Assembly (NCBI GenBank): GCA_035403785.1
Contig: DAONFW010000002.1
Span: forward strand, 12,676-76,675
DNA length: 64,000 nucleotides
DNA from: Minisyncoccota bacterium
GTDB lineage: Bacteria > Patescibacteriota > Minisyncoccia > Phycocordibacterales > UBA9973
Direction of reading: 5' to 3'
The notes below the pieces were generated by a model, which did no database searches, was not told the origin of the DNA, and worked only from the letters and a program-made list of their open reading frames with translations. How positions within the stretch are numbered: the first letter of the stretch is position 1; the number at the start of each line of letters is the position of its first letter. Positions 1,836 through 30,314 of this stretch are shown piece by piece. Both the position numbers and the translations under genes were made by a program.

Positions 1836-1854
1836 TAATTAGTATAATAAAAAT

Positions 1855-2262: not shown

Positions 2263-2273
2263 TAGATAAAAAA

Positions 2274-3005: not shown

Positions 3006-3250
3006 ACTATTTGCTTTTAAGCTCAGTATGTTATAATTAATAGGTGCTTAATTATTTAGGCAAGTTATAAATTATTATTAGGTCGCTAATTATTATAAAT
3101 TATTTCAGCTAAGATTAGCTGATTCGTTATTAACGGAAAAAATATGAATCCCGTTAGAAGTTAACTTTCGGGAATCGTAATTTTTAAAAATAAAATAAGT
3201 TGTCTAGCATATTTTGTAAGTAAAGTAAGTTAGTATAACTTCTAAACGGG

Positions 3251-3640: not shown

Positions 3641-3649
3641 ATATTTATT

Positions 3650-3994
3650 ATGATAGATTTGTTTTTACCAAATATTGCGTATGCTAGTGTAGACACATTT
3701 ATTGCCAAGGTTAATGAGGTAATTATTAATCCGCTTATCTTGTTGATGTTTGCATTAGCTTTAGTTTTCTTCTTTTATGGAATAGTAGAATTTCTTGCAA
3801 ATCCAGAAAGTGACGAGAAGAAGACAAAAGGTAAAAGCCATATGATTTGGGGAATAGTTGGTATTACGATTATGATGGGAGTATGGTTTATTATGCATCT
3901 TGTTATGAATACTCTAAATATAGAAGGAATTAATCCGGAAAAAGGAGAAGTGAAACTAAATGAGTATGCTCCAAATTATAATTGGAATCCTTAA
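3650..3994 (+). CDS. TrbC/VirB2-like pilin-type small membrane protein, short-leader variant (paralog 5)
   Basis: 114 aa. Only a 12-aa N-terminal leader (MIDLFLPNIAYA) before the conserved core (...FYGIVEFLANPESDEKKTKGKSHMIWGIVGI...). The ATG lies 9 nt after the stop of paralog 4. Confidence 0.5.
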   Translation: MIDLFLPNIAYASVDTFIAKVNEVIINPLILLMFALALVFFFYGIVEFLANPESDEKKTKGKSHMIWGIVGITIMMGVWFIMHLVMNTLNIEGINPEKGEVKLNEYAPNYNWNP

Positions 3995-5365: not shown

Positions 5366-5393
5366 TTTTTTTGTTTTTTAAATTATTAATTAT

Positions 5394-11053: not shown

Positions 11054-11092
11054 AAAATAAAAAAATAAAAATTAATTTTTAAATAAAAAAAT

Positions 11093-13792
11093 ATGCCACC
11101 ATTAAATAAATTCACAACCAAAGCAAAAGAGGCGATAAAAAAAGCGCATGAGTTAGCAATAGAGCGGGGACAAGACCACGTTTCCTCGATGCATCTTCTC
11201 GTTGCTCTTTTGGTGCAAGAAGAAAGTATGGTCAATTCTATTTTGGATAGACTAGAAGTAGACACAATGCTTTTAGCTGATTCTTCTCTTGAAGCAATCG
11301 AGTTGCCAGAATCAAAAAGTACACTTTCGCCTGCATATCAGATTTATTTAACAGCAGATTTGGCACAGGTTATTGAACATTCTGTAAAAGTAGCGGAATT
11401 TTTGAAAGATAATTTTGTATCAACAGAGCATTTATTTATTTCAATGCTTGAAGTGCAAGGTGAAGCAAAAGAACTTTTGGCTAGATTCAAAATTAATAAA
11501 GAATTAGTTTTGAAAATTTTAGAACAACTTCGCAGTCAGGATATTACAGGAAATGAAGAACCAAAAAAGTTCAGATTACTTTTGAAATATACTAGAAATC
11601 TAACCAAACTTGCGAAAGAAGATAAATTAGACCCAGTTATTGGTCGTGATAGTGAAATAATGCGCATAATGCAGATTCTTTCACGACGTACTAAAAATAA
11701 TCCGATTTTGATTGGAGAAGCGGGAACAGGAAAGACTGCAGTTGTTGAAGGTTTGGCTCAAAGAATAGCAAAAGGAGATGTTCCAGAATCTTTGAAAGAA
11801 AAAGAAATTGTTTCTCTTGATTTAGGATTGCTTATTGCTGGAACAAAATACAGAGGAGAATTTGAAGAAAGACTAAAAGGCATTATGAAAGAAATCGAAA
11901 GAGCAGAAGGAAAAATTATTTTATTCATAGATGAAATTCATACTATAGTTGGTGCTGGTGGCGGAGAAGGAACACTCGATGCTTCTAACATGCTAAAACC
12001 AACTTTGGCTCGAGGAGAATTAAGAGCAGTCGGTGCGACAACTTTGAAAGAATATCAGAAATATATAGAAAAAGATCCAGCGTTGGCTAGAAGATTTCAA
12101 CCTGTTTATATCGACGAGCCTTCTGTGGAAGATGCGATTGCAATTTTGCGTGGACTAAAAGAAAAATATGAATTATTCCATGGTGTGAGAATTACAGATG
12201 ATGCTATTGTTTCTGCTGTTAACTTATCTTCGAGATATATCACAAATAGATTTTTGCCAGATAAGGCTGTAGATTTGATAGATGAAGCTTCTTCTTCTTT
12301 AAAAATTTCTTTGGAAAATAAACCGCCAGTTCTAGAAGATGCACACAGAAAGATAATGAGATTAGAGATAGAAAAAGAAGCGCTCAAAAAAGAAATTTCT
12401 TCTTCAGGTTTAAGCGGAGAAAAAGAAAGCGGAAAACACGCTAAAGCTAGAATAAAAGAAATTGAAAAAGAAATTGCTAATTTAAATGAAAAGACGAAAG
12501 AACTTGAATTGAAATGGCAAAACGAAAAAAGTGTTGTTACTGAAATTGGTAAAATTAAAAAAGAATTAGAGGCTCTAAGATTAGAAGCTGAAAGCGCGGA
12601 AATGAAAGCTGATTTATCAAAAGCAGCGGAGATTCGCTATGGAAAAATTCCTACTCTTAAAAAAGATTTAGATACAAAACTTGCAAAATTGAAAAAATTG
12701 CAGAAGTCTAGAAGAATTCTAAAAGAAGAAATTACAGCAGAAGATATTGCAGAAGTTGTAGCACGCTGGACTGGAATTCCATTACGCAAAATGCTTGAAG
12801 AAGAACGCGCAAAATTAGAAAGAATGGAAGAAGAATTAAACAAAAGAGTAATTGGTCAAGATGATGCTATTCACAGAATAGCAGATGTGATTAGAAGATC
12901 TCGTGCTGGAATTTCTGATCCGAACAGGCCGATAGGTTCTTTTATTTTCTTGGGACCGACTGGAGTTGGAAAAACTGAACTTACAAAAGCTTTGAGCCAG
13001 TTTATGTTCAATGATGATAGAGCGTTAATTCGTGTTGATATGTCTGAATATATGGAAAAGCATTCTGTTTCGAAATTAATTGGTTCACCACCGGGTTATG
13101 TTGGTTATGATGAAGCAGGACAACTTACTGAAGCTATCAGGCACAGACCGTATGCTGTAGTTTTGTTTGATGAAATAGAAAAAGCGCATCCAGAAGTTTT
13201 TAACATGCTTTTGCAAGTAATAGATGAAGGAAGACTGACAGACGGAAAAGGTAGAATAGTAAATTTCAAAAATGCGATAATTATTTTGACTTCAAATATT
13301 GGCTCGCAGTTTGTTGAAAAAATGGAATCAATTGGATTTACAAATAGTTCAAGTAAAGAAGATTACAGTAATATGAAAGGAAAAGTATTGGAAGCTCTGA
13401 AAGAAAATTTCCGCCCAGAATTTATAAACAGAATAGATGAGACTATCGTGTTTGATGTTCTTTCTGAAGATGCTATTAGAAAAATAGTTGATCTAAGAAT
13501 TCAGGTTGTGCGAGACAGATTACTATCAAAAAATATTGGTTTTCAAATTTCTGAAGATGCTTTGAATTATTTGGCAAAAGAAGGATATAATCCACACTAT
13601 GGCGCACGGCCATTAAACAGACTGATTCAAAATAAAATTTTAAATCCAGTTGCTTCTTATATTATTTCTAATGATGTTAAGAAAAATGATGTAGTCTTTG
13701 TTTCTGTAAAAAATAATGAGCTTCTTATTGAAACTAAAAGAGGGAAAGTGAAAAGTAATGTTTCAGTAAAATTAAGAAGTTCTATTAAATAA
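11093..13792 (+). CDS. clpB: ATP-dependent chaperone ClpB (two AAA+ modules plus middle coiled-coil)
   Basis: 899 aa. N-domain, Walker A GEAGTGKT, long coiled-coil M-domain, second Walker A GPTGVGKT and sensor regions. The length matches ClpB rather than ClpA/C. Confidence 0.9.
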
Positions 13793-14013: not shown

Positions 14014-15690
14014 ATGAAAAAATATTTTAGCTCCTTAGGTTTTTTTCCTTTCTTTTTTGCTTTATTTTTATTTCCTTCAATTATTTTTGCACAAATAACA
14101 GAACCTGCTCAGGTTACTGGTCTTTTAGCTAGCGTTAGTGAATATAAACAAATTGATTTATCTTGGGTAGCACCAGATGATGGTGGTTCGCCAATTATTG
14201 GTTATCAAATTGAAAGAGAATCTCCAATTGGAAGTGGTTTTTCTGTTGTTATGCCAAATACAGGGGGTCCTGGAACTACTTATAGTGATACTGAACTTAA
14301 TCAAAATACAGAATATAATTATCGTGTTTCTGCTATTAACACTATCGGAACTGGTATTGCTTCAAACGAAGCAAGTGCTATTACAGAAAATGTTCTTAGT
14401 TATTTTGCAGGTGGTTCTGGTATTTCAGAAGATCCTTTTTTAATAACAACTTGTCAACAATTACAAAATGTTAATCATTTTGGAGGTCAGAGTAATCATT
14501 ATTATTTTAAAGTAATGAACGATATTAATTGTTCAGATACTGTAAATTGGAACAGCGGAGCAGGTTTTATTCCAATTGGACCATGGTTCGGTGGTTCTGT
14601 TGATGGAAATAAGAAAACAGTTTCTAATTTATTTATTAATAATTTTAATGAATCTGGAGGTACTGGACTGTTTGGATCTATAGATAGCGCAATTGTTTCA
14701 GAAATTGGTTTAGTAAATGTAGATATTACTGGATCATCAGGTGATGTTGGAGGGTTAGTTGGATATAGTATTCAAAGTCATTTAGAAAATAATTATGTAC
14801 AAGGTAACATTACTGGTGGAAGTAATGTTGGAGGGTTAGTTGGTAAAGTTTCTTCCCTTGGTCCAAAAACTATAGTTAATTCATATACCGATACGGTTGT
14901 TGTGGGGCAAGAGAATGTTGGAGGATTAGCAGGATATCTTGAAGAAGATAATATTTATAATTCATACGCTGTTGGAACAACTACTTCTACAATAAGTGGT
15001 AATGTTGGAGGGTTGGTTGGATATTGTAAAGGTGGTTATTCGAATTTAATTCATAATTCTGGTTGGTATAAAGGAAATAAAACAATTTCTGGAATTGGAT
15101 ATGATTCTGGCACAGATAATTTTGCTGAGGTAACTTATCCTGAAACAAATAAAAATGTTTTTTATGATAAAAATCATGCTATTTATACAGTAGGTGATTT
15201 ATATAAATGGTCGTTTGATGGTAATCCTTGGTATGAATATACTAATAGTTATCCAAAGTTTACAGAACAAGAAATAATTCCTGTAATTCTTCGTCACACA
15301 ACCACTGGCTCTTATCCAACAGGAAAAAATCCATTTATAACTTCTTCATCTTCTATCCCACCCACCGACTGTTTAGCAGGATATCTATTTAGTCCAAGTA
15401 CAGGTAAAGCATGTGGAACAACATCTGCTCCAACTACACCTAAATTCACATTCACAAAGAACTTAAAATACCTACAGATAGACAATGAAGTAAAAGAACT
15501 TCAAAAGTTCTTAAACACTCATGGCTATCAAGTATCTACTACAGGAGCAGGTTCACTAGATAATGAGACAAATTATTTTGGACCAAAAACTAAACAAACT
15601 GTAATTAAGTTTCAATTCGCTAATAATTTGACAGGAGATGGATTAGTTGGACCAATAACTAGGGGAGTATTGAATTCTTTGGTAAAATAA
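14014..15690 (+). CDS. Secreted protein: fibronectin type III domain + GLUG-motif repeats + C-terminal peptidoglycan-binding domain
   Basis: 558 aa. Signal peptide; FN3-like segment (DLSWVAPDDGGSPIIGYQIERE...YRVSAINTIGTG); at least five NVGGL(V/A)GY/K repeats (GLUG-like); C-terminal PG_binding_1-like segment (ELQKFLNTHGYQ...GPKTKQTVIKFQFANNLTGDGLVGPIT). Confidence 0.6.
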   Translation: MKKYFSSLGFFPFFFALFLFPSIIFAQITEPAQVTGLLASVSEYKQIDLSWVAPDDGGSPIIGYQIERESPIGSGFSVVMPNTGGPGTTYSDTELNQNTEYNYRVSAINTIGTGIASNEASAITENVLSYFAGGSGISEDPFLITTCQQLQNVNHFGGQSNHYYFKVMNDINCSDTVNWNSGAGFIPIGPWFGGSVDGNKKTVSNLFINNFNESGGTGLFGSIDSAIVSEIGLVNVDITGSSGDVGGLVGYSIQSHLENNYVQGNITGGSNVGGLVGKVSSLGPKTIVNSYTDTVVVGQENVGGLAGYLEEDNIYNSYAVGTTTSTISGNVGGLVGYCKGGYSNLIHNSGWYKGNKTISGIGYDSGTDNFAEVTYPETNKNVFYDKNHAIYTVGDLYKWSFDGNPWYEYTNSYPKFTEQEIIPVILRHTTTGSYPTGKNPFITSSSSIPPTDCLAGYLFSPSTGKACGTTSAPTTPKFTFTKNLKYLQIDNEVKELQKFLNTHGYQVSTTGAGSLDNETNYFGPKTKQTVIKFQFANNLTGDGLVGPITRGVLNSLVK

Positions 15691-18158: not shown

Positions 18159-19045
18159 TGGAGGAAACAAAAATTTATTATTCAAAAGATTGGAAAGATT
18201 ACGAACTTCTCGATACGGGAGAAGGAGAAAAATTAGAACGCGTTGGTAATTATAAATTTGTTAGGCCGTTTGAGGATGCTGTTTGGGTAAAAAGTTTGGC
18301 AAAGAAAGATTGGGCAGAAATAGATGGAAAATTTTTTACTTCTAAAAATAACAAGAACGAAAAGTCTGGTTGGAAACTAAATAAATCTTTGCCAAAAAAA
18401 TGGGAAATTAATTATAAAGATATAAAATTTTCTGTTACGCCAACGCCATTTAGGCATTTTGGTTTTTTTGGAGAACAGGCGAGCCATTGGGATTTTATAG
18501 AAAACAGTATAAAAAATTCAGGCAGGCATATAAAATTTCTAAATCTTTTTGGCTACACTGGCGTTGCGAGTTTGTTTGCATTACGAGCTGGGGCAGAAGT
18601 TACGCATTTAGATGCATCAAAAACCAGTCTTACTTGGGCGAAAGAAAATCAGGAACTTTCTGGCTTGAGTAATCTACCAATGAGAATTATTTGCGACGAT
18701 GCTTTGAAATTTTTAGAACGTGAAGCAAAAAGGGGAAATAAATATGATGCTGTTATTATGGACCCACCGAAGCACGGCAGAGGGCCAAACGGTGAAATTT
18801 GGAAAATAGAAGAAATGTTGCCAAAGCTTTTAGAAAACGTGAGAAAAGTTTTATCTGACAAGCCACTATTTGTGATTCTTACTTCTTATGCTATTGATGC
18901 ATCTTCTTTGTCTTTAAAATACGCACTTGAAGATGCATTAAAAGATTTTCACGGCAAAGTAGAAAATGGAGAATTGTGTTTATTAGAAACTTCTAAAAAA
19001 AGAACGATTCCTTCAGCTAATACAGCTATTTGGAAATCTTTTTAG
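18158..19045 (+). CDS. Class I SAM-dependent RNA methyltransferase (RlmI/RlmK-like)
   Basis: 295 aa. SAM-binding fold with a DPP motif (VIMDPPKHGRG). Its start overlaps the tsaC stop (TAATG). Confidence 0.55.
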   Translation: MEETKIYYSKDWKDYELLDTGEGEKLERVGNYKFVRPFEDAVWVKSLAKKDWAEIDGKFFTSKNNKNEKSGWKLNKSLPKKWEINYKDIKFSVTPTPFRHFGFFGEQASHWDFIENSIKNSGRHIKFLNLFGYTGVASLFALRAGAEVTHLDASKTSLTWAKENQELSGLSNLPMRIICDDALKFLEREAKRGNKYDAVIMDPPKHGRGPNGEIWKIEEMLPKLLENVRKVLSDKPLFVILTSYAIDASSLSLKYALEDALKDFHGKVENGELCLLETSKKRTIPSANTAIWKSF

Positions 19046-19598
19046 TTTTTGAATTTTTTATTTTATTATTTGCTTTTTCAGTAGCTCTTGTTTTTCTGGT
19101 TTGACTTTGTTCTTTTAACTCTAGAACTTCTTCTATTAGTTTTCCTAAATTTTCTTCTATCTTTTGCATTAGTTCATCGTCTTTCTTTTGTTCTGATTCT
19201 TCATTTTCAGAGTCTTCTTGGATTTCTTCCACATCTTCTTGAATCTCGTCCACATCTTCTTGGATTTCATCGACATCTTTTTGAATCTCATCAACATCTT
19301 TTTCAATTTCTTCAACGTCTTCTTGAATTTCTTCAATATCTTCCGAAACTTCTTCTAGTTCTTCTGCGTGCTTATTTACAGTCATTTGAATAAAAATAGA
19401 AAGATAAATAGCTTCGAGAGAAACTATAGTAGTAAGAACAAGCATGACTTTGTCAAAATTTACGCTATTGTTTAAAGCGAGTCCCATCATGATAGCAAAG
19501 AAAACGGTATGAACAAAAAGGGAACTGGGTGAACCAATCCATCTCACAAATTTATCTGATGCTTTTCTAATTCTTATTTTTCTTTCTTTTCTGGTCAT
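19026..19598 (-). CDS. Membrane protein with acidic heptad-repeat region
   Basis: 190 aa. Two TM helices in the N-terminal half, then about 8 tandem heptads of (D/E)V(E/D)EI(Q/E)(E/K). Confidence 0.45.
   Translation of the reverse strand: MTRKERKIRIRKASDKFVRWIGSPSSLFVHTVFFAIMMGLALNNSVNFDKVMLVLTTIVSLEAIYLSIFIQMTVNKHAEELEEVSEDIEEIQEDVEEIEKDVDEIQKDVDEIQEDVDEIQEDVEEIQEDSENEESEQKKDDELMQKIEENLGKLIEEVLELKEQSQTRKTRATEKANNKIKNSKTKKISK
19215..19350. repeat. Approx. 21-bp imperfect tandem repeat (about 6-7 copies) encoding the acidic heptads
   Basis: Plus-strand units such as TCTTGGATTTCTTCCACATCT / TCTTGAATCTCGTCCACATCT / TCTTGGATTTCATCGACATCT, read directly. Confidence 0.6.
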
Positions 19599-19707: not shown

Positions 19708-20781
19708 ATGGAAAATCAACAAAATTTACAAACGAACAAGCCAAAACTTAGTATAAGTTTTTTCTTTTTGTGCTTGGGTGTTTTGATTTCTTTAATAACT
19801 TCTGTTGTTTCTTTTCTTAATTTAGTTTTCAGTACATTAGATAAACGTTTTCCGGATGTTTTGAATGCAACTTATCAGTATGGTTATAATACTTATAATT
19901 ATGAAACGATGCGTATTGCTCTCGCAACGCTAATAATTTTCTTTCCGATTTTTCTAATAGTGTTTCATTTTTGGAAAAAATTTACGAAAAAAGAAATTGG
20001 GCACATAGATCAGGTGTTAAAAAAATGGCTAGTGTATGTAGTTTTATTTTTGTCTACTTTAGTAGTTCTTATTGATCTTGTAACACTTGTAAAATATTTT
20101 GTTTCTGGAGAAATAACTATTAGATTTGTTTATAAAGTTTTAGCTACTTTTGTAACAGCTGTGATTATTGGTAAATATTTTTATATTTCAGAATTCTGGT
20201 CAGCTGAGAAAAAATTATTTAAAAAAATAAATATCAAAAAATTAAATACAATAATTAATCCAATTGCCGGTTCGGTTTTGGTTATTTTGGCTGTTATTTG
20301 GAGTTTCTCAGTTATGGGAAGTCCTATGAAACAAAGAATGCTTAGATTGGACGATAAGAGGGTTTCTGATTTGCAGAGTATTCAGTATCAGGTTATAAAT
20401 TATTGGCAGCAAAAAGAAAAACTGCCAGTTAGATTAGTTGATTTGGCAAATCCAATTTCCGGTTATTCTTTGCCTGTTGACCCAGAATTTGAGAAGGGAA
20501 AAGTTTATGAATATAATTTAAAAGACGAGAAAAATTTAACTTTTGAATTATGTGCAGATTTTTCTTTACCAATGCCAAAAGGTTGGCAAGAATCACAAAA
20601 TTATTATAAAGTAACAGGCTCAGCTGTGCCCATGGAAACAACAACTGATGTGGCTGTTTCTTCTTATCCTTATGCTGGTGGAGTTGGAGAATCATGGGAT
20701 CACCAAACAGGCAGAACTTGCTTTGAAAGAACGATAGATAAAGATTTGTATCCACCTTTTCCGAAAGTATTAAAAAATTAA
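19708..20781 (+). CDS. Hypothetical polytopic membrane protein
   Basis: The ORF opens at 19606; the likely start is MENQQNLQ at 19708. About five predicted TM helices in the N-terminal half and a soluble C-terminal domain. Confidence 0.45.
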   Translation: MENQQNLQTNKPKLSISFFFLCLGVLISLITSVVSFLNLVFSTLDKRFPDVLNATYQYGYNTYNYETMRIALATLIIFFPIFLIVFHFWKKFTKKEIGHIDQVLKKWLVYVVLFLSTLVVLIDLVTLVKYFVSGEITIRFVYKVLATFVTAVIIGKYFYISEFWSAEKKLFKKINIKKLNTIINPIAGSVLVILAVIWSFSVMGSPMKQRMLRLDDKRVSDLQSIQYQVINYWQQKEKLPVRLVDLANPISGYSLPVDPEFEKGKVYEYNLKDEKNLTFELCADFSLPMPKGWQESQNYYKVTGSAVPMETTTDVAVSSYPYAGGVGESWDHQTGRTCFERTIDKDLYPPFPKVLKN

Positions 20782-20822
20782 AAGATTTATAAGTTATAAA
20801 AATTAAAGATAGCTAGTATAGA

Positions 20823-23660
20823 ATGAAAAATTACGATCATAAAAAAATTGAAAAAAAATGGCAGAAAGTTTGGGAAGACAAAAAAATTTATCAAGCCAAG
20901 AATAATTCCAAAAAGAAGAAGTTTTATTCTTTGATTGAATTTCCATATCCGTCTGGTGCTGGGTTGCATGTCGGTCATCCTCGTCCGTATATTGGGATGG
21001 ATATTGTTTCTCGTAAAAAGAGAATGGAAGGATATAATGTTCTTTTCCCAATTGGTTGGGATGCTTTTGGTTTACCAACAGAAAACTATGCTATTAAAAC
21101 TGGAATTCATCCATCAAAAGTCACAAAACAAAATACTGACAATTTTCGTCGTCAAATAAAAATGTTTGGTCCGTCTTTTGATTGGACACGAGAAATAAAC
21201 ACAACTGATCCGACTTATTACAAATGGACGCAGTGGATTTTTTTACAGATGTATAAAAAAGGTTTGGCTTACAAATCAGAAATGCCAATCAATTGGTGTC
21301 CAAAATGTAAAATTGGTCTAGCAAACGAAGAAGTAATAAACGGCAAATGTGAACGATGTGGCGCTGATACAGAAAGAAGATTAAAAAAACAATGGATGTT
21401 GGGAATTACAAAATATGCTGACAGATTAGATAAAGATTTGGATTTAGTTGATTACCCTGAAAGTATAAAATTACAGCAGAGAAACTGGATCGGCAGATCA
21501 GAGGGAAGTGAAATAGAATTTAAAATAAAAAATTCTGATCAGAAAATAAAAGTTTTCACTACACGTGCAGATACTTTGTTCGGTGCGACTTATGTTGTGC
21601 TTGCGCCTGAGCATGAATTGGTGCAGAAGTTAAATTTTGAAAATAAAAAAGAAGTTGAAAATTATATTAAGTCAGTAAAAAGTAAAACTGATATTGAAAG
21701 AACAGATGAGAAAAAAGAAAAAACAGGAGTTGAATTGAAGGGCTTGAAAGCTATCAATCCAGCTAACAGTGAAGAGATTCCAGTTTGGGTTGCTGATTAC
21801 GTTTTAGTTGGTTACGGAACTGGTGCAGTAATGGCAGTACCGGCGCATGATGAGAGAGACTTCGCGTTTGCGAAGAAATATGGGTTAGAAATTAGGCAGG
21901 TAATTGCTCCATTTTTTACTGAAAAAGAAGATGGTAAAGATAAAGTTAGACCTGATAAAAAAACTGTTACTCGAAAAACTGCTTATGCTTTAGTTTTTGA
22001 TAAAAAGAATAATAGATTTTTGTGTTTAGATTGGGAAAAGTTTAATTGGCATTCTGGAATAATTGGTGGTGTCGATGAAGGAGAAACTTATCTAGAAGCA
22101 GCATTAAGAGAAATAAAAGAAGAAACTGGTTATACTAACCTTAAATTTATAAAAGAATTAGGGATGGAACAACATAATAATTTTTTTGCTGCTCATAAAG
22201 ATGAAAATAGGTATGCAATAGGTCGTGGAATGCTTTTTGAACTCATTGATGAAGATAAAATAGAAACAGAAGAAGAACATACTTGTAATCATAAACTTGT
22301 TTGGATAAGAGCTGAGGAGATGAAAGATTGGTTAAATCTTTCGGCTTTTGAGTATATGTGGAAAGCGTATATTTCTGGTTCTGATTGTTTTATTGACGAT
22401 GGAATTTTAATGAACTCTGGAAATTTTAATGACTTAAATTCAGATGAAGCTCGAAATAAAATTACAGAATTTGTTGGGGGAAAAATAGTTACGAAATACA
22501 AATTACGCGATTGGGTCTTTTCAAGACAGAGATATTGGGGAGAACCGATTCCACTTATTCACTGCGAGAAGTGCGGTTGGGTTGCAGTTCCTGAAAAAGA
22601 TTTGCCGGTAAAATTACCAGAAGTAAAAAATTACAAGCCGACCGATACGGGAGAATCGCCGCTTTCTTTAATTTCAAAATGGGTGAATGTAAAATGCCCG
22701 AAGTGTAAAGGGAAAGCGGTGAGAGAAACAGACACAATGCCAAACTGGGCGGGAAGTTCTTGGTATTATTTAAGATACACAGATCCGAAAAATAAAAAAG
22801 AATTTGCGAATAAAAATATTCTAAAATACTGGACGCCGGTAGATTGGTATAACGGTGGCATGGAGCACGTTACTTTGCACTTATTGTATTCAAGATTTTG
22901 GCATAAGTTTTTGTATGATTTGAAATTAGTGCCAACAAAAGAACCGTACAAAAAAAGAACAGCACATGGAATGGTTCTTGCTGCAAACGGCGAAAAGATG
23001 TCTAAATCAAGAGGCAACGTAGTGAACCCAGATGATGTAATAAAATTATACGGAGCTGATACTTTGAGAATTTACGAAATGTTTATTGGGCCTTTCGGTG
23101 ATACTGTTGCTTGGAATGATGAAAGTATAATCGGCCCAAGAAGATTTATTGAGAAAGTTTGGAGAATCAGTCAGAAAGTTTCAAAAGAAAAAACTTCTGG
23201 TGATGTTGTAAAATTGTTGCACAAGACTATCAAGAAAGTAGGAGAAGATATAGAAGAAATGCGTTTCAATACAGCAGTTTCTGCGATGATGATTCTAGCT
23301 AGTGAGTTTGAAAAAGTTGAAGATATAAATATAAAAGATTTTAAATTATTCTTGCAGATTTTGGCACCGTTTACACCGCACGTTGCCGAAGAACTTTGGA
23401 TTTCTTTGGGCGAGAAAAAAACGATACATCTTTCAAGTTGGCCAAAATTTGATAAAAATTTAATAAAAGATGATGAAGTAAAAATAGCTGTTCAGGTAAA
23501 CGGAAAAGTTCGAGCAGAAATGTTGATTCAGATAGATGAGAAAGAAGAAAATATAAAAGAAAAAGCGCTAAAAATAGAGCAAGTTGTTAAATTTACTGAA
23601 AATAAAGAAATAAGAAAAGTAATTTATGTAAAAAACAGACTTGTGAATATCGTAGTGTAG
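20823..23660 (+). CDS. leuS: Leucyl-tRNA synthetase carrying an inserted Nudix-box domain in the CP1 region
   Basis: 945 aa. HIGH motif HVGHPRPY, Zn knuckles CPKCK..CERCG, editing-site TTRADT and GTGAVMAVPAHDERD, KMSKS. About 160 extra residues (aa ~365-525, nt ~21915-22398) contain GGVDEGETYLEAALREIKEETGY, a perfect match to the Nudix box GX5EX7REUXEEXGU. Confidence 0.9.
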   Translation: MKNYDHKKIEKKWQKVWEDKKIYQAKNNSKKKKFYSLIEFPYPSGAGLHVGHPRPYIGMDIVSRKKRMEGYNVLFPIGWDAFGLPTENYAIKTGIHPSKVTKQNTDNFRRQIKMFGPSFDWTREINTTDPTYYKWTQWIFLQMYKKGLAYKSEMPINWCPKCKIGLANEEVINGKCERCGADTERRLKKQWMLGITKYADRLDKDLDLVDYPESIKLQQRNWIGRSEGSEIEFKIKNSDQKIKVFTTRADTLFGATYVVLAPEHELVQKLNFENKKEVENYIKSVKSKTDIERTDEKKEKTGVELKGLKAINPANSEEIPVWVADYVLVGYGTGAVMAVPAHDERDFAFAKKYGLEIRQVIAPFFTEKEDGKDKVRPDKKTVTRKTAYALVFDKKNNRFLCLDWEKFNWHSGIIGGVDEGETYLEAALREIKEETGYTNLKFIKELGMEQHNNFFAAHKDENRYAIGRGMLFELIDEDKIETEEEHTCNHKLVWIRAEEMKDWLNLSAFEYMWKAYISGSDCFIDDGILMNSGNFNDLNSDEARNKITEFVGGKIVTKYKLRDWVFSRQRYWGEPIPLIHCEKCGWVAVPEKDLPVKLPEVKNYKPTDTGESPLSLISKWVNVKCPKCKGKAVRETDTMPNWAGSSWYYLRYTDPKNKKEFANKNILKYWTPVDWYNGGMEHVTLHLLYSRFWHKFLYDLKLVPTKEPYKKRTAHGMVLAANGEKMSKSRGNVVNPDDVIKLYGADTLRIYEMFIGPFGDTVAWNDESIIGPRRFIEKVWRISQKVSKEKTSGDVVKLLHKTIKKVGEDIEEMRFNTAVSAMMILASEFEKVEDINIKDFKLFLQILAPFTPHVAEELWISLGEKKTIHLSSWPKFDKNLIKDDEVKIAVQVNGKVRAEMLIQIDEKEENIKEKALKIEQVVKFTENKEIRKVIYVKNRLVNIVV

Positions 23661-23701
23661 ATTTGCTTTGGTTAGTTGTGTTATAATTAAACTAAATAAT
23701 T

Positions 23702-25408
23702 ATGGTAAAAAAAATCAGAAACTTTCTCAAGAAAAACTTTCTACTTACTGCTAGCTTAATGTTTCTAGTTGTTTTTTCAGGTACAATGCAGTTATTTGCT
23801 GCTGATCCACCACCTCCAGTAGGTGGTTATCCGGCAGGTACAGTTCTTGATCCAGGTTGTACACCAGGAAGTGTAGATTGTATAGTTGCTCAAGCTGTAT
23901 ATAATGCTGGAGATATTATGTATGATAATTCAACTTCTGGTTTAACTGCTACTGATACTCAGGCTGCGATTGATGAGATAGATGGGGTTGTGGATAATAT
24001 AAACGATTTTACAATTGATGTAAATAATAATATGTTTGCCGGAACTGGAGCGGGAAGTTCTTTGTCTGGTGGCCAAAATAATTTTTTTGCAGGTATTGGT
24101 GCTGGGCAGAATACAACAACGGGAAGTAATAATATCGCTATTGGTTATCAAACACTTTATTCAAACTTAACAGGAAATAAAAATACGTCGAATGGATTTC
24201 AAACACTTTTTTTAAATACAATAGGATATGATAATACAGCCAACGGGTATTTATCCCTTGCTTCGAACACGACAGGATTTCAAAATACTGCTATTGGCCT
24301 TCAATCTCTTACTACAAATACAATTGGATATCAAAATGTAGCTAACGGTGTTCAATCACTTGGCATAAATACAACAGGATATCAAAATACTGCTAATGGG
24401 TATAATGCACTTGTTGGTAACACAACGGGTTGGGCCAACAGTGCTATTGGATATCAAACTCTTTCCACTAATACTACAGGGTCTTATAATACGGCTATCG
24501 GTTATAATGCAGATGTAACTGTAAATAATCTAATTAATGCAACAGCTATTGGTTACAATGCAAAGGTTGGTTCAAGCAATAGTTTGGTCCTTGGAGGAAC
24601 TGGGGCAGATGCTGTGAAAGTTGGAATCGGTACAACAACACCAACTAATGTTCTAGATATTGTTGGGCCAGCATTGGATACAACAGTAGTAAGTATTTCA
24701 ACAACTGGAGGAAATACTTGCACTTTTAATACAGGAGTTAATCCGGGAGTTTGGTCCTGTGCTTCAGATAGAAGATTGAAAAATAGTATTTCTGCTATAG
24801 ATAACAATTTAGCTTTAACAAAGATAAACGCACTTAATCCAGTAATGTTTCATTATAATTGGCAAGAATCTTCAGACCCTTTAGTTCCAGGATTTATTGC
24901 CCAAGAATTCGAAGAAATTTTTCCAGATATGGTTTCAACAAATCCAGAAACTGGTTACAAATCTCTTTCTTACACTCCACTTATTCCATATACAGTGAAA
25001 GCTATTCAAGAACTTGATCTAAAAGTAGAAGACTTAATTGTTGAAAAACAAAATCTATTTAATAATTTAATTGCTTGGTTTGGAAATGTGGGGAATGGAA
25101 TAGAAAAATTATTTGCAAAAGAAATACATACAGATATGATTTGTGTTAAAAAATCAGATGGTACAGAGAGATGTGTCACAGGAGATGAATTAGACCAAGT
25201 TCTTTCAAACTCTGGATTGAATAATATTACTCCTACACAAGCACAAGAACCTATTAGGTCTAATAATGCTGGTGATGTAACAGAAGAAGGAATAGACGGA
25301 ACTGCTCCTAATGAAGCCCAAAATCCAACTACCGAAACTCCTCAATCAGAAACGCCGCTTAGTGATACCCCTACAACAGATACAACAAACCCAACAGAAA
25401 GTGCTTAA
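23702..25408 (+). CDS. Secreted tail-fibre-like protein: ~14-residue Asn/Thr/Gly repeats plus C-terminal Peptidase-S74-type intramolecular chaperone domain
   Basis: 568 aa. Signal peptide; about 10 repeats of the form NTxGxxNTAxGxxxL (aa ~140-270). CASDRRLKNSISAIDNNLALTKINALNPVMFHYNW at nt 24764 onward matches the SDxRxK auto-cleavage motif and downstream pattern of phage tail-spike chaperone domains. Thr/Pro-rich C-terminal tail. Confidence 0.55.
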   Translation: MVKKIRNFLKKNFLLTASLMFLVVFSGTMQLFAADPPPPVGGYPAGTVLDPGCTPGSVDCIVAQAVYNAGDIMYDNSTSGLTATDTQAAIDEIDGVVDNINDFTIDVNNNMFAGTGAGSSLSGGQNNFFAGIGAGQNTTTGSNNIAIGYQTLYSNLTGNKNTSNGFQTLFLNTIGYDNTANGYLSLASNTTGFQNTAIGLQSLTTNTIGYQNVANGVQSLGINTTGYQNTANGYNALVGNTTGWANSAIGYQTLSTNTTGSYNTAIGYNADVTVNNLINATAIGYNAKVGSSNSLVLGGTGADAVKVGIGTTTPTNVLDIVGPALDTTVVSISTTGGNTCTFNTGVNPGVWSCASDRRLKNSISAIDNNLALTKINALNPVMFHYNWQESSDPLVPGFIAQEFEEIFPDMVSTNPETGYKSLSYTPLIPYTVKAIQELDLKVEDLIVEKQNLFNNLIAWFGNVGNGIEKLFAKEIHTDMICVKKSDGTERCVTGDELDQVLSNSGLNNITPTQAQEPIRSNNAGDVTEEGIDGTAPNEAQNPTTETPQSETPLSDTPTTDTTNPTESA

Positions 25409-25431
25409 TAATTAAGCACTTTTTATTTTTT
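25400..25431 (+). terminator. Rho-independent terminator overlapping the stop codon
   Basis: AGTGCTTA-ATAAT-TAAGCACT followed by TTTTATTTTTT. Confidence 0.55.
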
Positions 25432-25496
25432 ATGGTAATATTAGTATATTAATAAAGTTATTAGTATAGTTTTTTAATTTTTATAAAATAAATAAT

Positions 25497-27653
25497 ATGT
25501 CAAAAATCTTCGATAAAATATCTTTTTGGTCGCTATTCGTTACAATAATTTCTCTGCCGTTTTTCTTTTTACCATTTACTAAAATTCCAGTAGAAATTTC
25601 CAAAAGTTTTATTTTGGTTTTAGGTCTTTCTGTTTCTATAATTTTTTGGGCAATCGCAAGATTTTTTGATAGAAAAATAACTGTTCCAAAGTCATGGATT
25701 TTTTTGTCTAGCTCGATCGTTTTGTTTGTGATGCTTCTATCTAGTATTTTTTCTAAAGCTGCCGGTTTTTCTTTTTTTGGAACAATCTTAGATACAAGTT
25801 CTTTCTTTTTTGCACTGTCAGCATTTTTGCTGATGTTCTTTTCATCTTTGATTTTTAAAGACAAAAAAGCTGTTGGTCTAGTTTTTAAAGGTTTAATTAT
25901 TTCATTTTTTGCTTCTGTAGTTTTTCAACTTACACATGTGTTTTTCCCTAAAATATTATCTTTTAATACACTCTTTCAAAAAACAGATAACTTAATTGGA
26001 AGTTTTAATTCTTTCAGCATTTTTGCTGGGTTAGTTATTATTTTTTCAATGCTCGTCCTTTCTTTTGTTTCAGTTTCAAGATTGAATAAAAATATTTTAG
26101 GTTTAACTATTTTAGTTTCTACTTTTCTGATAGCGCTAAATAATTTCTCTTTCATTTGGCTAGTTCTTGGAATTTTTTCTTTGTTTATTTTTATCTATAA
26201 AATTTCTTTTACTTCAGGAATTAAACCAGAGATAGAAAACGCAAAGACAGATACAAATACAGATATTAGTATAAATACAAAAATGAATGTAGAAGAAAAA
26301 AACAAAAATAAATTTGCAGTCATTCCATTTTTGATGGTGATTGTTTCAGTTTTCTTTTTGCTTGGTGGTAGTAATATAAGCAATTTTGCGCCTACGTATT
26401 TTGGAATTTCTAATGCAGAAATCAGACCTTCTTTTTCCGCCACTTTTGATATTGCTAAAAGCACATTAATAAAAAATCCAATATTAGGCTTGGGCCCGAA
26501 TACTTTTTCAAGCTCTTGGGACTTGTATAAGACTGCTTCTATAAACGATACCAATTTTTGGGGAACTTCTTTCGAATTTGGATCTGGAATTTTACCAACT
26601 TATATGACTACGGGAGGTTTTCTTGGGCTGTTAGCTTGGGCGTTCTTTATTTTAGTAATTTCTCTATTTATTCTTAAAAATTTATTTTCGAAAAAAATTA
26701 AAAATTTGTCAGACTGGAGAATTCCTTTGTTCTTAATAATGTCTTTGTACTTATTTGTAGTTTCATTTTTCTACGCAGTGAGTCCAGTTTTAATTTTGTT
26801 AGCGTTTGCTTTCCTTGGAATTTACATCGGTGCATCTGGTTTTAGTAAAGAAATAAATTTTCAGTTTTTGAATAACTCAAGAAAAACTTTCATAGCAGTA
26901 GTTGCTTTAACTATTATCATTCTTGCAGTTATTACAGCTTGTTTCAAATATACTGAAAGATTTATTTCTATTTCTTATTTCCAAAAAACTGTTTCTGCAA
27001 GTTCTGTTGAATTAGCTGAGAAAAATATAAATAAAGCAGTAGCTCTTTATCCTAACGATTTATATTTGCGTACTTACACACAAGTTTATTTGTTAAAATT
27101 TAAAACTATTTCAGCAAAAGGCGCTTCGATTACAGATTCTGAAAAAGCTGAATTAAAAGATAGTTTTGATAAAACTATCGCTGCTGGAGAATTGGCTATC
27201 AAATACAATAGAAATAATTATTTGAATTTCAAATCTCTTGGGATCGCTTATGAAACTTTTGCAACATATGGGATACAAAATGCAGGGAATATGGCAGTAG
27301 AAGCATACAAAAAAGCTTCTGAACTTAACCCTAAAAATCCTGGTTTAAAATTAGATATTGCCCGCGCTGCTTTTGCTATAAGCAATACTGAAGAGGCAAA
27401 AAAGTACGCGTTAGAATCATTTGATCTTAAAAAAGATTATATCGATGCAATGGTTATGCTTGCACAAATTTTAAAGAGTGAAGGAAATTTGAAAGAAGCA
27501 ATGATGTATGGAGATTTGGCTTTGTCTTACAATCCTACAAATACTCAGCTGGCTCAATTTGTTGATTCACTAAGTATTCAAAACATTTCTCCTGTTGGTT
27601 CTGAAAAAGATACTGATAAAACAGGGAAAGAAACAGAATCAAAAAAACAGTAA
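25497..27653 (+). CDS. O-antigen ligase/polymerase-like (Wzy_C-type) polytopic membrane protein with C-terminal TPR repeats
   Basis: 718 aa. At least 10 TM helices, a large extracytoplasmic loop with LGLGPNTF (typical of Wzy_C/O-antigen ligase-like proteins), and a C-terminal ~220 aa with TPR-like repeats (AYKKASELNPKNPG..., ALSYNPTN). Confidence 0.55.
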   Translation: MSKIFDKISFWSLFVTIISLPFFFLPFTKIPVEISKSFILVLGLSVSIIFWAIARFFDRKITVPKSWIFLSSSIVLFVMLLSSIFSKAAGFSFFGTILDTSSFFFALSAFLLMFFSSLIFKDKKAVGLVFKGLIISFFASVVFQLTHVFFPKILSFNTLFQKTDNLIGSFNSFSIFAGLVIIFSMLVLSFVSVSRLNKNILGLTILVSTFLIALNNFSFIWLVLGIFSLFIFIYKISFTSGIKPEIENAKTDTNTDISINTKMNVEEKNKNKFAVIPFLMVIVSVFFLLGGSNISNFAPTYFGISNAEIRPSFSATFDIAKSTLIKNPILGLGPNTFSSSWDLYKTASINDTNFWGTSFEFGSGILPTYMTTGGFLGLLAWAFFILVISLFILKNLFSKKIKNLSDWRIPLFLIMSLYLFVVSFFYAVSPVLILLAFAFLGIYIGASGFSKEINFQFLNNSRKTFIAVVALTIIILAVITACFKYTERFISISYFQKTVSASSVELAEKNINKAVALYPNDLYLRTYTQVYLLKFKTISAKGASITDSEKAELKDSFDKTIAAGELAIKYNRNNYLNFKSLGIAYETFATYGIQNAGNMAVEAYKKASELNPKNPGLKLDIARAAFAISNTEEAKKYALESFDLKKDYIDAMVMLAQILKSEGNLKEAMMYGDLALSYNPTNTQLAQFVDSLSIQNISPVGSEKDTDKTGKETESKKQ

Positions 27654-27674: not shown

Positions 27675-29357
27675 ATGGAGAAAATTTTAAAAATCTTTAA
27701 CAAAGAATTTATAAACGTAAATCAGGCGGCTTTGTTGCTGGGAATTTTTACTTTGCTTTCGCAGATTCTTGCATTGTTCCGTGATAGATTCATTGCACAT
27801 TTTGTTGGACCATCAGCGGGACTAGACGCTTATTATGCTGCTTTTAGAATTCCTGATTTGATTTTCATTTCAATTGCATCTCTTGCTTCTGTAACTGTTT
27901 TGATTCCATTTATTTCTGCAAAAATGAAAGACGGCAAAGTTACAGAAGAGTCAAAAAAATTCATGAACAGCGTTTTTACTGTATTTTTAGGTGCGATGAT
28001 TATCGTTTCTGTTGTTATCTTTTTTCTTATGCCAGTTTTGGCAAAATTAGTAGCGCCAGGATTTAGTCCAGAAATGCAAGCTAAATTGGTAATGCTTTCT
28101 AGAATCATGCTTTTTTCACCGATTCTCATGGGGCTTTCTAATCTATTTGGTACTGTTACGCAACTTTTCAGGAGATTTTTCTTTTATTCTTTGAGTCCGA
28201 TATTTTACAATCTTGGCATAATTTTTGGTGTGATAATTCTTTATCCGATTTTTGGAATCAAAGGCATGGCGATAGGTGTTGCTTTTGGTGCTTTTCTACA
28301 TTTTTTGATTCAAGCTTTTGCATCTTCCGGTTGCGGTTTTAGACCAAGATTTTCTTTCAAGATAGATTTCAAAGAAATCAGAAAAGTTGTTGCAACTTCT
28401 TTACCTAGGACTTTAGGTCTTGCTTTCAACAGTATTTCTTTGGTTTGCATAATTGCGTTGGCATCTTTTCAAAAAAGCGGTTCTATTTCTATTTTTAATT
28501 TTTCTTATAACTTGCAATCTGTGCCACTTAATATTATTGGCGTTTCTTATGCAGTTGCTTCTTTTCCGATTTTAGTAAAATCTTTTAGTCCAGGGAAATT
28601 AGAGCAGTTTAAATTGCATTTGAAAAACACAGCAAGACAGATTATTTTTTGGTCTTTGCCAGTTACTTTTTTGTTTATAGTTTTGAGAGCACAAATAGTG
28701 CGTGTAATTTTGGGATCTAGAACTTTTTCTTGGGATAATACAAGACTCGTTGCGGCTTCACTTGCGATATTTTCTATATCAGTTTTAGCTCAGGGCATGG
28801 TAGCGCTTTTGTCTCGAGCTTATTATGCGACAGGGAACACGAAGAGGCCGCTAACAATAAACTTAATTAGTTCTATTTCTATAATTATTTTAGCTTATGT
28901 TTTCACGCATGTATTTAATTCTGTGCCGATGTTCAGATATATAATAGAATCGATGTTTAAAGTTACAGACATCCCCGGCACTTCAGTGCTTATGTTACCG
29001 CTTGCATATTCAGTCGGATCTATTATTAATTTTATCTTACAGTGGGTTTTTATAAAAAGAGATTTTATGGAAAAGAAAGAACAGTTTATTGCAAAAACTT
29101 TTTTCCAGAGCTTGGGTGCATCTTTCTTTATTGGTATAGTTTCTTACTTGAGCTTAAATGCTTTTTCATCGGTTTTTGGTTTAGGAACTTTCTGGGGAGT
29201 TTTCTTACAGGGATTTATTTCTGGAATTTTCGGAATATCAGCTGGCGCGGTGGTTTTGTATATGTTAAAAAATAAAGAATTCAGTGATTTGATCAAAACT
29301 CTAAAATCAAAATTCTGGAAGCAGAAAGTTATCGCGCCAGAACAGCAGGAACTTTAG
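27675..29357 (+). CDS. murJ: Lipid II flippase MurJ (MviN)
   Basis: 560 aa, 14-TM MOP-superfamily profile. N-terminus LLLGIFTLLSQILALFRDRFIAHFVGPSAGLDAYYAAFRIPDL is typical of MurJ. Confidence 0.8.
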   Translation: MEKILKIFNKEFINVNQAALLLGIFTLLSQILALFRDRFIAHFVGPSAGLDAYYAAFRIPDLIFISIASLASVTVLIPFISAKMKDGKVTEESKKFMNSVFTVFLGAMIIVSVVIFFLMPVLAKLVAPGFSPEMQAKLVMLSRIMLFSPILMGLSNLFGTVTQLFRRFFFYSLSPIFYNLGIIFGVIILYPIFGIKGMAIGVAFGAFLHFLIQAFASSGCGFRPRFSFKIDFKEIRKVVATSLPRTLGLAFNSISLVCIIALASFQKSGSISIFNFSYNLQSVPLNIIGVSYAVASFPILVKSFSPGKLEQFKLHLKNTARQIIFWSLPVTFLFIVLRAQIVRVILGSRTFSWDNTRLVAASLAIFSISVLAQGMVALLSRAYYATGNTKRPLTINLISSISIIILAYVFTHVFNSVPMFRYIIESMFKVTDIPGTSVLMLPLAYSVGSIINFILQWVFIKRDFMEKKEQFIAKTFFQSLGASFFIGIVSYLSLNAFSSVFGLGTFWGVFLQGFISGIFGISAGAVVLYMLKNKEFSDLIKTLKSKFWKQKVIAPEQQEL

Positions 29358-29369
29358 TTTTGGATTTTT

Positions 29370-30314
29370 ATGAATTTTTTTAACAAATTTTTAAGATTAA
29401 AAAATAATTTACTAGTAATTTCTAATTTAGATATTAGTGAATCTATTTATATACCAGAACCAACAAAGTCTTTATTATGGGTAACCAATGAAGATATTTC
29501 AAAAATTTCGTCACCCTTCCAAATCAAGATTACTTTTGATCTAAACCAAGGGAAATCTGAAATTAATGATGGACATAATTTTTTTGGAGAACCAAGTTTA
29601 ATTTGGACTAAATTGCCAATAGAGAAAAATAATGAATTAGAAAATAAACCCATGTATTATCCTTCCTATTCTTCATTATCTCCAAAAAATAGATATCAAT
29701 ATTTAAATTGGTTAAGAGATATAACACAACCAACAAATCTAAGTTATGTTTTTCTTTATTATTATGGGTTGGAAAGACAATTACTTATTGGTAATTTTGA
29801 TTTAGCAGTACAAGAAATATTTAAGTTGTTGAAATATCACGACAAGGGTACATTTAGAGCTTATGCACAAAATGCATTAATAGTTTCAGCTTTGTACAAA
29901 AATAGGACGGATATTTTTGAAGAAAACTCTTTTCTTTTTGAGAGTGTTTCAAATGAATCTTTAATTGTTAGAAAAAAGTTTGGTTATAAATTAACCGCTG
30001 TCGAATTAATGAACTTATCATATTCTCTAAAATTGAAAAACAAGAGATATATAAAATTATATCCAGAAGATTTTGTAAACGAATTAGACAAATTATTAAT
30101 ATCTTATGAAAAAAATAACGGTTCTTTACTTGATATTGTTTCTTTGGAAGAAATGAAATTTCAAGATTCTATGGTTTTTGCCAATGGTTCTTTGCCTAAA
30201 AATATAAGAACAATAAAAGTTCCTCAACTTATTTTAAATCCAAAATTTAGAGATATGTGTCTTAGTCTATTAGAGAAAGCACATGAAAATTTGAAAATCA
30301 AACATACAAAATAG
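29370..30314 (+). CDS. Hypothetical protein
   Basis: 314 aa, soluble. Aromatic-rich segment YYPSYSSLSPKNRYQYLNWL. I recognise no family. Confidence 0.35.
   Translation: MNFFNKFLRLKNNLLVISNLDISESIYIPEPTKSLLWVTNEDISKISSPFQIKITFDLNQGKSEINDGHNFFGEPSLIWTKLPIEKNNELENKPMYYPSYSSLSPKNRYQYLNWLRDITQPTNLSYVFLYYYGLERQLLIGNFDLAVQEIFKLLKYHDKGTFRAYAQNALIVSALYKNRTDIFEENSFLFESVSNESLIVRKKFGYKLTAVELMNLSYSLKLKNKRYIKLYPEDFVNELDKLLISYEKNNGSLLDIVSLEEMKFQDSMVFANGSLPKNIRTIKVPQLILNPKFRDMCLSLLEKAHENLKIKHTK

Follow-up and report, generated by a model that had tools for sequence, protein, structure and literature searches.

The 64,000-nucleotide stretch of contig DAONFW010000002.1 analysed here (hereafter the window) encodes a tail-fibre-like protein of 568 amino acids (hereafter the fibre) whose C-terminal part is a Peptidase_S74 intramolecular chaperone domain. 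The fibre gene is a chromosomal gene of a patescibacterium (Candidatus Paceibacterota) and lies outside any prophage. From its predicted parts we consider it rather probable that the product is a Sec-exported trimeric surface fibre, folded and cleaved by its S74 domain and serving as an adhesin. An earlier reading of the same stretch, made from the letters alone (the sequence-only reading), had already noticed its likeness to phage tail fibres, and we find this homology along both the shaft and the chaperone. The domain architecture is an ordinary one in an interesting organism: S74 chaperones, repeat shafts and the notion that cells encode S74 fibres are established, and it is the sizeable family behind the protein that appears to be undescribed. 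The coordinates of all features are collected in Table 1.

The assignment of the C-terminal domain to the S74 chaperones stands because matches from Pfam, PHROGs, a profile search of the PDB and Foldseek, together with the conservation of the two predicted catalytic residues, all lead to it. Peptidase_S74 (PF13884) matched residues 355–411 with E = 2.2e-12 and 47.5 bits against a gathering score of 22, the match spanning profile positions 1–57 of 58. Across 48 homologues, Ser355 is invariant and Lys360 is conserved to at least 90%. The sequence-only reading, which had proposed such an auto-chaperone, placed its motif at nt 24764; this is the codon of Ser355, and the string that it quoted, 'CASD...', begins at 24758. 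When the AlphaFold2 (AF2) model of the fibre was compared to solved structures with Foldseek, the best match was the intramolecular chaperone auto-processing (ICA) domain of MyRF (7DC3; probability 1.0, TMt 0.68, E = 3.6e-4), and the K1F chaperone 3GW6 was matched with a probability of 0.93. Residues 351–440 of the model show mean confidence (pLDDT) values of 82–95 per block of 10 residues. A single-sequence phmmer search against PDB sequences gave no match, and a profile of the 48 homologues was needed to match the chaperone-bearing ends 6F45, 8JOV and 3GUD as well as MyRF ICA 7DC3 (E = 5e-13), the last of these matches taking in the VGIxTxxP loop that stands ahead of the cleavage site. Residues 78–451 also match PHROGs families annotated as tail fibre, tail spike or virion structural protein (best E 1e-28), and a viral structure library returned 207 matches at E ≤ 1e-3, mostly ICA domains and tail-fibre proteins. 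No NCBIfam model matches the fibre. Behind the chaperone, the AF2 model has strands at 479–483 and 489–493 and a helix at 494–503 (pLDDT ~80–84). The low-complexity tail that follows is exchanged between otherwise identical alleles, and Pro/Thr-rich tails are also present in the loci L018 and L030 (L-numbers denote loci or contigs of relatives and P-numbers fibre proteins).

The shaft had been described in the sequence-only reading as about ten repeats of 14 residues. The repeats and their motif NTxGxxNTAxGxxxL are correct, with about 11 copies, but the period is 17 residues: the BLOSUM autocorrelation of residues 105–300 gave z = 15.3 at lag 17 and 11.1 at lag 34, compared with −0.7 at lag 14. 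The shaft DNA has a period of 51 bp (Tandem Repeats Finder), and the AF2 model places one short strand in every 17 residues from 111 to 297, with pLDDT values of 71–83 for residues 110–220 and of 52–66 for residues 221–300. Phage and IMG/VR proteins share 45–58% identity with the shaft. In the tip, the sequence 'vgigttapa' was aligned to 'RVGINTDRPD' of MyRF in the profile alignment.

The N-terminus looks like a Sec signal, a call that we made by inspection and from conservation in the family: five basic residues precede a hydrophobic stretch of about 20 residues and LFA|AD, Phe32 and Ala33 ahead of the presumed cut are kept in the 11 family members compared, none of which has Pro at +1. The signal peptide proposed in the sequence-only reading is thus borne out by the same features. 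Residues 2–31 form a helix in the AF2 model. In the leader that follows, residues G46, L49, D50, P51, C53, P55 and C60 are invariant in the 11-sequence family alignment. Altogether the fibre protein contains six cysteines, which lie in three close pairs (53/60, 340/353 and 481/491).

This leader defines a family. The whole-protein search returned 5242 matches at E ≤ 1e-3, mostly 'tail fiber domain-containing proteins' of Bacteroidota, and 11 of the best 120 matches possess a signal peptide ending in [FY]A that is followed by PPxxGGYxPGxTLDPxCxPGxxxCxV. The N-terminal 103 aa gave no match in a word-indexed search. We then used a leader profile of 62 positions, derived from an alignment of 11 sequences, in a full hidden Markov model (HMM) scan, which retrieved 1370 cluster representatives at E ≤ 1e-3; of these, 247 also pass a threshold of E ≤ 1e-10. 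The leader is always N-terminal, and the proteins bearing it are up to 4116 aa long. Further counts were taken from the 116 listed matches of at least 450 aa. Among these, 103 carry S74, with SDxxxK in 91 and a CxnC hairpin past the chaperone helix in 94 of the 103, and, measured from the Ser to the end of the protein, the median length is 217 aa (214 in the window fibre). The 17-residue shaft repeats occur in only 11 of the listed proteins, and some leader-bearing proteins without S74 have YadA_head or DUF2793 instead. Of 93 leader-family proteins, 72 have a Cys two positions ahead of the Ser, whereas in non-leader homologues Cys is not among the six most frequent residues at this position. 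Among the loci that could be named, the leader HMM matches patescibacterial ones only, and none of 16 IMG/VR relatives carries the leader, most of them starting like ordinary cytoplasmic phage fibres. Hence, we are dealing with a leader-bearing family of at least 1370 clusters, seen only in patescibacterial contexts, that appears to be undescribed. Since the fibre is one of at least 1370 cluster representatives, it is a member of a large and old cellular family and not a recent domestication; the sequence-only reading had considered a domesticated phage receptor-binding protein.

The genomic surroundings agree with a cellular gene. The precomputed Pfam gene tables, which cover most of the window, contain housekeeping and envelope genes only and no phage genes, in accordance with the host-encoded location noted from the sequence. 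They list gyrase just past the window start, a solute-binding protein, five T4SS_pilin proteins, IF-2, ClpB, an fn3/PG_binding protein, YchF, a family 2 glycosyltransferase (GT2), Sua5, a methyltransferase, DUF1003 and DUF5671 proteins, leucyl-tRNA synthetase (LeuRS), the fibre, a membrane protein with tetratricopeptide repeats (TPR membrane protein), MurJ, a TerB_N protein, LepA, DivIC, enolase, phosphoglycerate mutase, a class-I aminoacyl-tRNA synthetase, TsaD and others. Eleven tRNA genes are present in the window, and the GC content is 29–35% throughout with no step at the fibre. The open reading frame (ORF) list and the gene call of the Joint Genome Institute (JGI; contig Ga0116247_10000180, metagenome 3300010352) agree on the fibre gene including its start, and the exact 568-aa protein is recorded on 4 contigs. 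A tblastn search found no second copy or fragment of the gene in the window. Because an extended −10-like element and a terminator-like hairpin flank it, the sequence suggests that the fibre gene is its own transcription unit. The fibre locus L003, a paralogue or allele, shares 93% identity with the 5′ block in which the −10-like element sits; a two-hexamer promoter scan did not pick up this putative promoter.

We compared the locus to those of relatives and found fibre genes at two recurrent sites. At site A, the genes follow in the order LeuRS, fibre, TPR membrane protein and MurJ, as seen in the window, L037, L038 and L039; the Paceibacterota genome L030 also has the site, with the fibre moved behind MurJ. 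In L002, L037 and L039, LeuRS takes the same position with respect to the fibre, and the site is occupied in relatives whose LeuRS is only 63–88% identical. Site B (L003 and L056) has the order L28, Peptidase_M50, fibre, a CarboxypepD_reg-type protein and rpsL-rpsG-fusA. In L037, the identity to the window is 88% for LeuRS, 81% for the TPR membrane protein and 91% for MurJ, but only 54% for the fibre, in which leader, neck and tail are nearly the same and an unrelated middle takes the place of the repeat shaft. Our reading of this pattern of kept flanks and a replaced middle is that the gene may evolve in the manner of a receptor-binding protein. The fibre gene of site B (product P0002) shares two blocks with that of the window: window positions 23676–23887 share 92.9% DNA identity with positions 9976–10186 of L003, this 5′ block of 93% identity including 26 nt upstream of the ATG, and the S74 block (window 24722–25020) is ~93–100% identical, whereas the shaft is different and 100 aa longer and the tail differs as well. 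Among the window protein, P0001, P0002, P0003 and P0004 alike, the leader and S74 blocks are near-identical and shaft and tail differ; the neck is common to P0003 and is not found in P0002 or P0004. The contig L002 is 99.6% identical to window positions 19752–25123 and then continues as site B, with the junction inside the shared S74 block (L002 ~4970–5373); P0001 was seen on one contig only. By its sequence, this junction would either stem from recombination of paralogous fibre genes or be a chimera of the metagenome assembly.

Downstream of the site B fibre, at a distance of ~4.7 kb, both L002 and L003 carry a diversity-generating retroelement (DGR); none was seen in the window. It comprises a 355-aa reverse transcriptase, a 117-aa gene and a 281-aa Lcl_C (DUF1566) target protein, with the variable repeat at L002 10328–10464 and the template repeat at 11070–11206. 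The 137-bp template and the variable repeat show 17 differences, all 17 of which fall on template adenines. L003 contains a second pair of RVT_1 and bAvd at 1326–2698.

The gene that follows the fibre in the window encodes the TPR membrane protein (AF2 pLDDT 85.8). A protein with 100% identity to it comes from a Candidatus Paceibacterota metagenome-assembled genome (MAG), and all named homologues of the TPR membrane protein are from Paceibacterota, Minisyncoccia, Nomurabacteria, Parcubacteria or Patescibacteria. The sequence-only reading had described it as an O-antigen-ligase/polymerase-like core combined with TPR repeats. The repeats were confirmed, but not the core: Pfam and NCBIfam gave only TPR repeats and no Wzy_C (PF04932) for the product, only TPR-type families were among the 25 most-matched in a Pfam scan of 56 family members, and a precomputed Wzy_C match was found for 0 of 120 homologues. 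In the PDB, both sequence and fold searches were swamped by TPR matches; a relation of the membrane core to O-antigen ligase/polymerase may exist on the fold level. Homologues of the TPR membrane protein adjoin or neighbour fibre genes in L037, L039, L057, L018 and L030. A full-length homologue directly follows the fibre gene in L057 after a gap of 2 nt, in a neighbourhood of pilin and glycosyltransferase genes, and in L018 a homologue lies one gene after the fibre without LeuRS or MurJ. Beside fibres in three other contexts, including L057 and L018, the homologues are only 24–27% identical. Because the neighbourhood recurs across such divergent contexts, the gene order suggests a functional tie of the TPR membrane protein to the fibre, and the former may be a partner of the latter, as an anchor or modifier. 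MurJ, the other neighbour named in the sequence-only reading, is real (Pfam 217 bits), but its link to fibres is not consistent, since it is missing beside those in L018, L057, L003, L056 and L020; it is the TPR membrane protein that recurs instead.

The JGI annotation places a 127-aa antisense gene at 25481–25864 on the minus strand and lets the TPR membrane protein begin at 25848, which leaves a product of 601 aa. In the 718-aa frame, the N-terminal residues are conserved and membrane-helix-like in 56 homologues. Because the longer frame has these conserved N-terminal residues, the antisense gene is probably a false call, and JGI probably starts the TPR membrane protein too late.

For the working of the fibre we infer disulfides and, by analogy with the K1F endosialidase, T5 pb1 and the Bdellovibrio protein Bd3182, export, trimerisation, cleavage, anchoring and adhesin function. 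The signal peptide would carry the chain across the membrane, and outside the cell the S74 chaperone (aa 355 to about 475) would set three chains in register and nucleate the folding of residues 109–354. There, the cysteine pairs 53/60, 340/353 and 481/491 could form disulfides. Ser355, activated by Lys360, would then cut its own peptide bond, yielding a mature fibre of ~320 residues and a C-terminal piece of 214 residues with chaperone, Cys hairpin and tail. The N-terminal Cys-loop module might hold the fibre on the cell, possibly via the outward-facing TPR domain of the adjacent membrane protein, and the variable shaft and tip would bind a surface structure of another cell, the host of the symbiont.

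The closest precedent for such a fibre is the S74 subgroup, with Bd3182, of the mosaic adhesive trimers (MATs) of Bdellovibrio bacteriovorus, which are likewise cell-encoded, bear a signal peptide, show homology to phage fibres and end in S74 with SDxxxK. Of the 21 cell-encoded, signal-peptide-bearing MAT fibres, 13 end in S74 with SDxxxK (Caulton et al. 2024, PMC10769870). The MATs are mosaic proteins found at the surface of the predator, and glycans of the prey are bound by one of them (PMC10769870). For the MAT S74 fibres, experiments have demonstrated the signal peptide, the SDxxxK cleavage and the location at the surface, and an S782A mutant of Bd3182 blocks cleavage (PMC10769870); S-to-A mutants likewise block cleavage in the K1F endosialidase and T5 pb1. 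The authors also noted a possible use of such fibres by other bacteria (PMC10769870). Both the MATs and the window fibre combine a conserved presentation end with a diversified or exchangeable rest, and Bdellovibrio lives on other cells. An episymbiont adhesin is consistent, by this analogy, with the Candidatus Paceibacterota source, a bacterium that is probably host-dependent, with the conserved ends and replaced middle of the gene, and with the Bdellovibrio precedent. The two systems nevertheless differ. Phylum and envelope type are not the same, and surface location, cleavage and glycan binding are experimental findings for the MATs, whereas the window fibre is known here from its sequence. 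Compared by description, the MATs have a beta-rich N-terminal domain of ~130 aa, whereas the window fibre has a Cys-loop of ~30 aa followed by residues 61–104 with pLDDT <50. The MATs are ~1000 aa long instead of 568, and only the window fibre has ~90 extra residues behind the chaperone (Cys hairpin and tail), three family-specific Cys pairs and the recurrent TPR membrane neighbour.

Phage fibres with such a chaperone (K1F 3GW6, T5 pb1 4UW8, GA-1 gp12 3GUD and SPO1 gp2.52) are alike in the S74 fold, the Ser/Lys motif and the Asn/Gly-rich repeat shaft, and deposited phages are 31–37% identical to the window fibre over residues ~103–458. They sit, however, in virion modules, most have no signal peptide, and the C-terminal fragment is ~100–110 aa in two complete viral relatives compared with 214 aa here. 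MyRF shares the chaperone fold and the VGIxTxxP loop, and its self-cleavage is trimerisation-dependent, but it is a eukaryotic membrane-bound transcription factor without a fibre shaft whose cleavage releases a DNA-binding trimer. The 'tail fiber domain-containing proteins' of Bacteroidota and others have the same 17-residue consensus and S74 end as the window fibre, lack the patescibacterial leader and Cys pairs, often stand in tandem arrays, and in several cases carry type IX secretion system (T9SS) sorting domains (PF18962) or PF26696. The latter, although listed for many Bacteroidota homologues, gave no match on P0010 in a Pfam scan. Tandem arrays of three or four S74 fibre genes were seen in L015, L016, L019 and L028, which are MAGs of Gammaproteobacteria, Chryseolinea, Verrucomicrobiae and Ferruginibacter; these arrays suggest multi-copy fibre repertoires like that of Bdellovibrio in non-patescibacterial genomes. 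The Asn/Gly-rich short repeats of trimeric autotransporter heads (YadA, BpaC), which form beta-rolls, also resemble the shaft, and several homologues are labelled 'trimeric autotransporter adhesin' by JGI. The YadA head repeat has 14 residues compared with 17 in the window shaft. A trimeric autotransporter was rejected, as Pfam found neither YadA_head nor a YadA anchor at E ≤ 0.1, BpaC was matched only with E = 0.2, and there is no beta-barrel anchor.

Several observations weigh against the exported surface adhesin that we favour. The signal peptide was called by eye and family conservation, and the AF2 model is that of a monomer, with a mean pLDDT of 65.7 and poor prediction at residues 61–104 and 304–322. 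Pfam and the sequence gave no anchoring device of a known type in the fibre (no LPXTG, lipobox, YadA anchor or T9SS domain), and because of this, retention on the cell is an assumption. The TPR membrane neighbour, as candidate partner, is missing beside the fibres at site B (L003, L056) and in L020. Lastly, the C-terminal fragment is longer than in phages, and its conserved hairpin and Pro/Thr-rich tail lie outside what our reading explains.

One alternative is a released fibre: tail and Cys hairpin would hold the precursor at the envelope until S74 cleavage frees the trimer into the medium, where it could act as a soluble lectin, matrix component, toxin-like binder or decoy, in parallel to the membrane-tethered C-terminus of MyRF. 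The median fragment of 217 aa in the family compared with ~100–110 aa in the two viral relatives, the hairpin in 94 of 103 members, the recurrent Pro/Thr-rich tails, the lack of a recognisable N-terminal anchor domain and the MyRF ICA as best structural match of the chaperone would fit. The leader, however, is the most conserved part of the family, which fits retention or presentation as proposed for the N-terminal domain of the MATs, and the tail has no known anchoring motif and is freely swapped between alleles, so that we regard release as unlikely. We hold a structural or protective fibre of the envelope (a coat, spacer or phage shield), in which the variability would reflect evasion of phages or grazers, to be similarly improbable. 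Hypervariable surface genes are expected under phage pressure too, the neighbourhoods are envelope-related (MurJ and TPR membrane protein; glycosyltransferases and pilin in L057), and shaft modules common to viruses would allow a host copy to mimic or compete with phage fibres. Against it speak the single copy in 64 kb, the short mature part, the architecture of a receptor-binding protein and the binding of prey glycans by the Bdellovibrio homologues.

The two other alternatives are less probable still. A prophage or tailocin tail-fibre remnant, stranded in the chromosome and without a cellular role, would account for the clear phage-fibre homology and the phage-like mosaicism, but it is largely refuted and the least probable of all readings, as the gene tables for most of the window hold no other phage gene, the ORF is intact with an apparent −10 element and terminator of its own, its GC content matches the surroundings, it has the signal peptide and leader that viral relatives lack, the same locus is occupied in relatives with 63–88% identical LeuRS, and the family has at least 1370 representatives. 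A location of the gene inside a prophage is itself ruled out by the housekeeping and envelope gene context; thus neither an absence of S74 similarity nor an intact prophage, the two outcomes that would have spoken against the sequence-only reading, was found. A secreted tailspike-like enzyme, i.e. a glycan depolymerase instead of a binder, comes to mind since S74 was first described on endosialidases and since a glycosidase and a pectate-lyase-superfamily protein are among the viral fold matches. We consider this very unlikely: Pfam, NCBIfam and PDB searches found no catalytic domain, the mature part comprises only ~320 aa that are mostly 17-residue repeats, and the glycosidase and pectate-lyase fold matches have high root-mean-square deviations of 13–21 Å.

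The fibre family, large and predicted to be exported, offers a second concrete class of host-recognition candidates for ultrasmall patescibacterial episymbionts. According to the literature, little is known of how Patescibacteria recognise their hosts, type IV pili being the factor that has been studied. In the literature we found no paper linking Patescibacteria, Parcubacteria or Saccharibacteria to tail fibre, S74 or endosialidase, and S74 or tail-fibre terms are also absent from the supplements of the paper on Paceibacteria-methanogen parasitism. Should the fibres bind host surfaces, the sequences of shaft and tip could allow pairs of symbiont and host to be predicted from metagenomes. A more far-reaching and tentative idea, which we rate as doubtful, is a cassette system for host recognition across the phylum Patescibacteria. 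Here, the fixed 5′ block (promoter, signal peptide and leader) and 3′ block (S74 and hairpin) would serve as recombination handles, shafts would be swapped between sites, strains and the phages of the community, and the TPR protein would be the anchor or modifier. The fibres would then set the host range of episymbionts as tail fibres do for phages.

Table 1. Features of the fibre gene, its product and the adjoining genes (window coordinates; aa, amino acids of the fibre unless stated otherwise)
Feature	Position	Strand	Description
LeuRS with NUDIX insert	20823..23660	+	Upstream boundary of fibre site A; TIGR00396 1021 bits
Extended −10-like element	23679..23687	+	TGTTATAAT; 15 nt upstream of ATG; read from sequence
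Fibre gene	23702..25408	+	568 aa plus stop
Predicted signal peptide, aa 1–33	23702..23800	+	MVKKIRNFLKK / hydrophobic core / QLFA|A
Family-specific leader, aa 34–62	23801..23887	+	DPPPPvGGYpaGtvLDPgCtPGsvdCiV; Cys53/Cys60 pair
Neck or linker, aa 63–108	23888..24025	+	Includes motif TATDTQAAIDEIDGVV; pLDDT 36–41, poorly predicted
Shaft, aa 109–295	24026..24586	+	~11 repeats of 17 residues; consensus NTTGxxNTAxGxxALxx (48 homologues)
Distal tip, aa 296–354	24587..24763	+	VGIGTTTPTNVL loop motif; Cys340/Cys353 pair
Near-identical stretch, window/L002/L003	24722..25123	+	~93–100% DNA identity; blastn, sliding identity
S74 intramolecular chaperone domain, aa 355–about 475	24764..25126	+	PF13884; long helix 427–461
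Predicted autocleavage motif	24764..24781	+	S355-D-R-R-L-K360; Ser nucleophile, Lys base
Post-chaperone extension, aa 476–505	25127..25216	+	Beta-hairpin Cys481/Cys491, then helix (ICVKKSDGTERCVTGDELDQVL)
Low-complexity tail, aa 506–568	25217..25405	+	Rich in Thr, Pro, Glu, Gln; pLDDT <40
Terminator-like hairpin	25396..25424	+	13 pairs, then T-run; overlaps stop codon
TPR membrane protein	25497..27653	+	718 aa; ~13 transmembrane helices, large loop 294–365, C-terminal TPR ~490–695
MurJ	27675..29357	+	Part of site A; context only

Further observations concern the neighbouring genes. The NUDIX insert of LeuRS lies at ~21894–22478, with NCBIfam nudix matches at residues 408–497; LeuRS of L030 lacks residues ~358–552, and that of L039 is longer (1127 aa) and also contains NUDIX. 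Between MurJ and LepA, a TerB_N-domain protein is encoded at 29370–30314 on the plus strand (61 bits). Five consecutive small T4SS_pilin (PF18895) genes are located at 1440–3994 (plus strand) beside the gene of the solute-binding protein. The plus-strand gene at 14014–15690 encodes a 558-aa protein with fn3 and PG_binding_1, possibly a surface or wall-binding protein; peptidoglycan-binding proteins have been put forward as attachment factors in Paceibacteria (PMC10936435). At 19026–19598 on the minus strand, a DUF1003 membrane protein shows acidic heptad-like repeats (EDVEEIQ / KDVDEIQ), and its gene adjoins a methyltransferase gene in L030 too.

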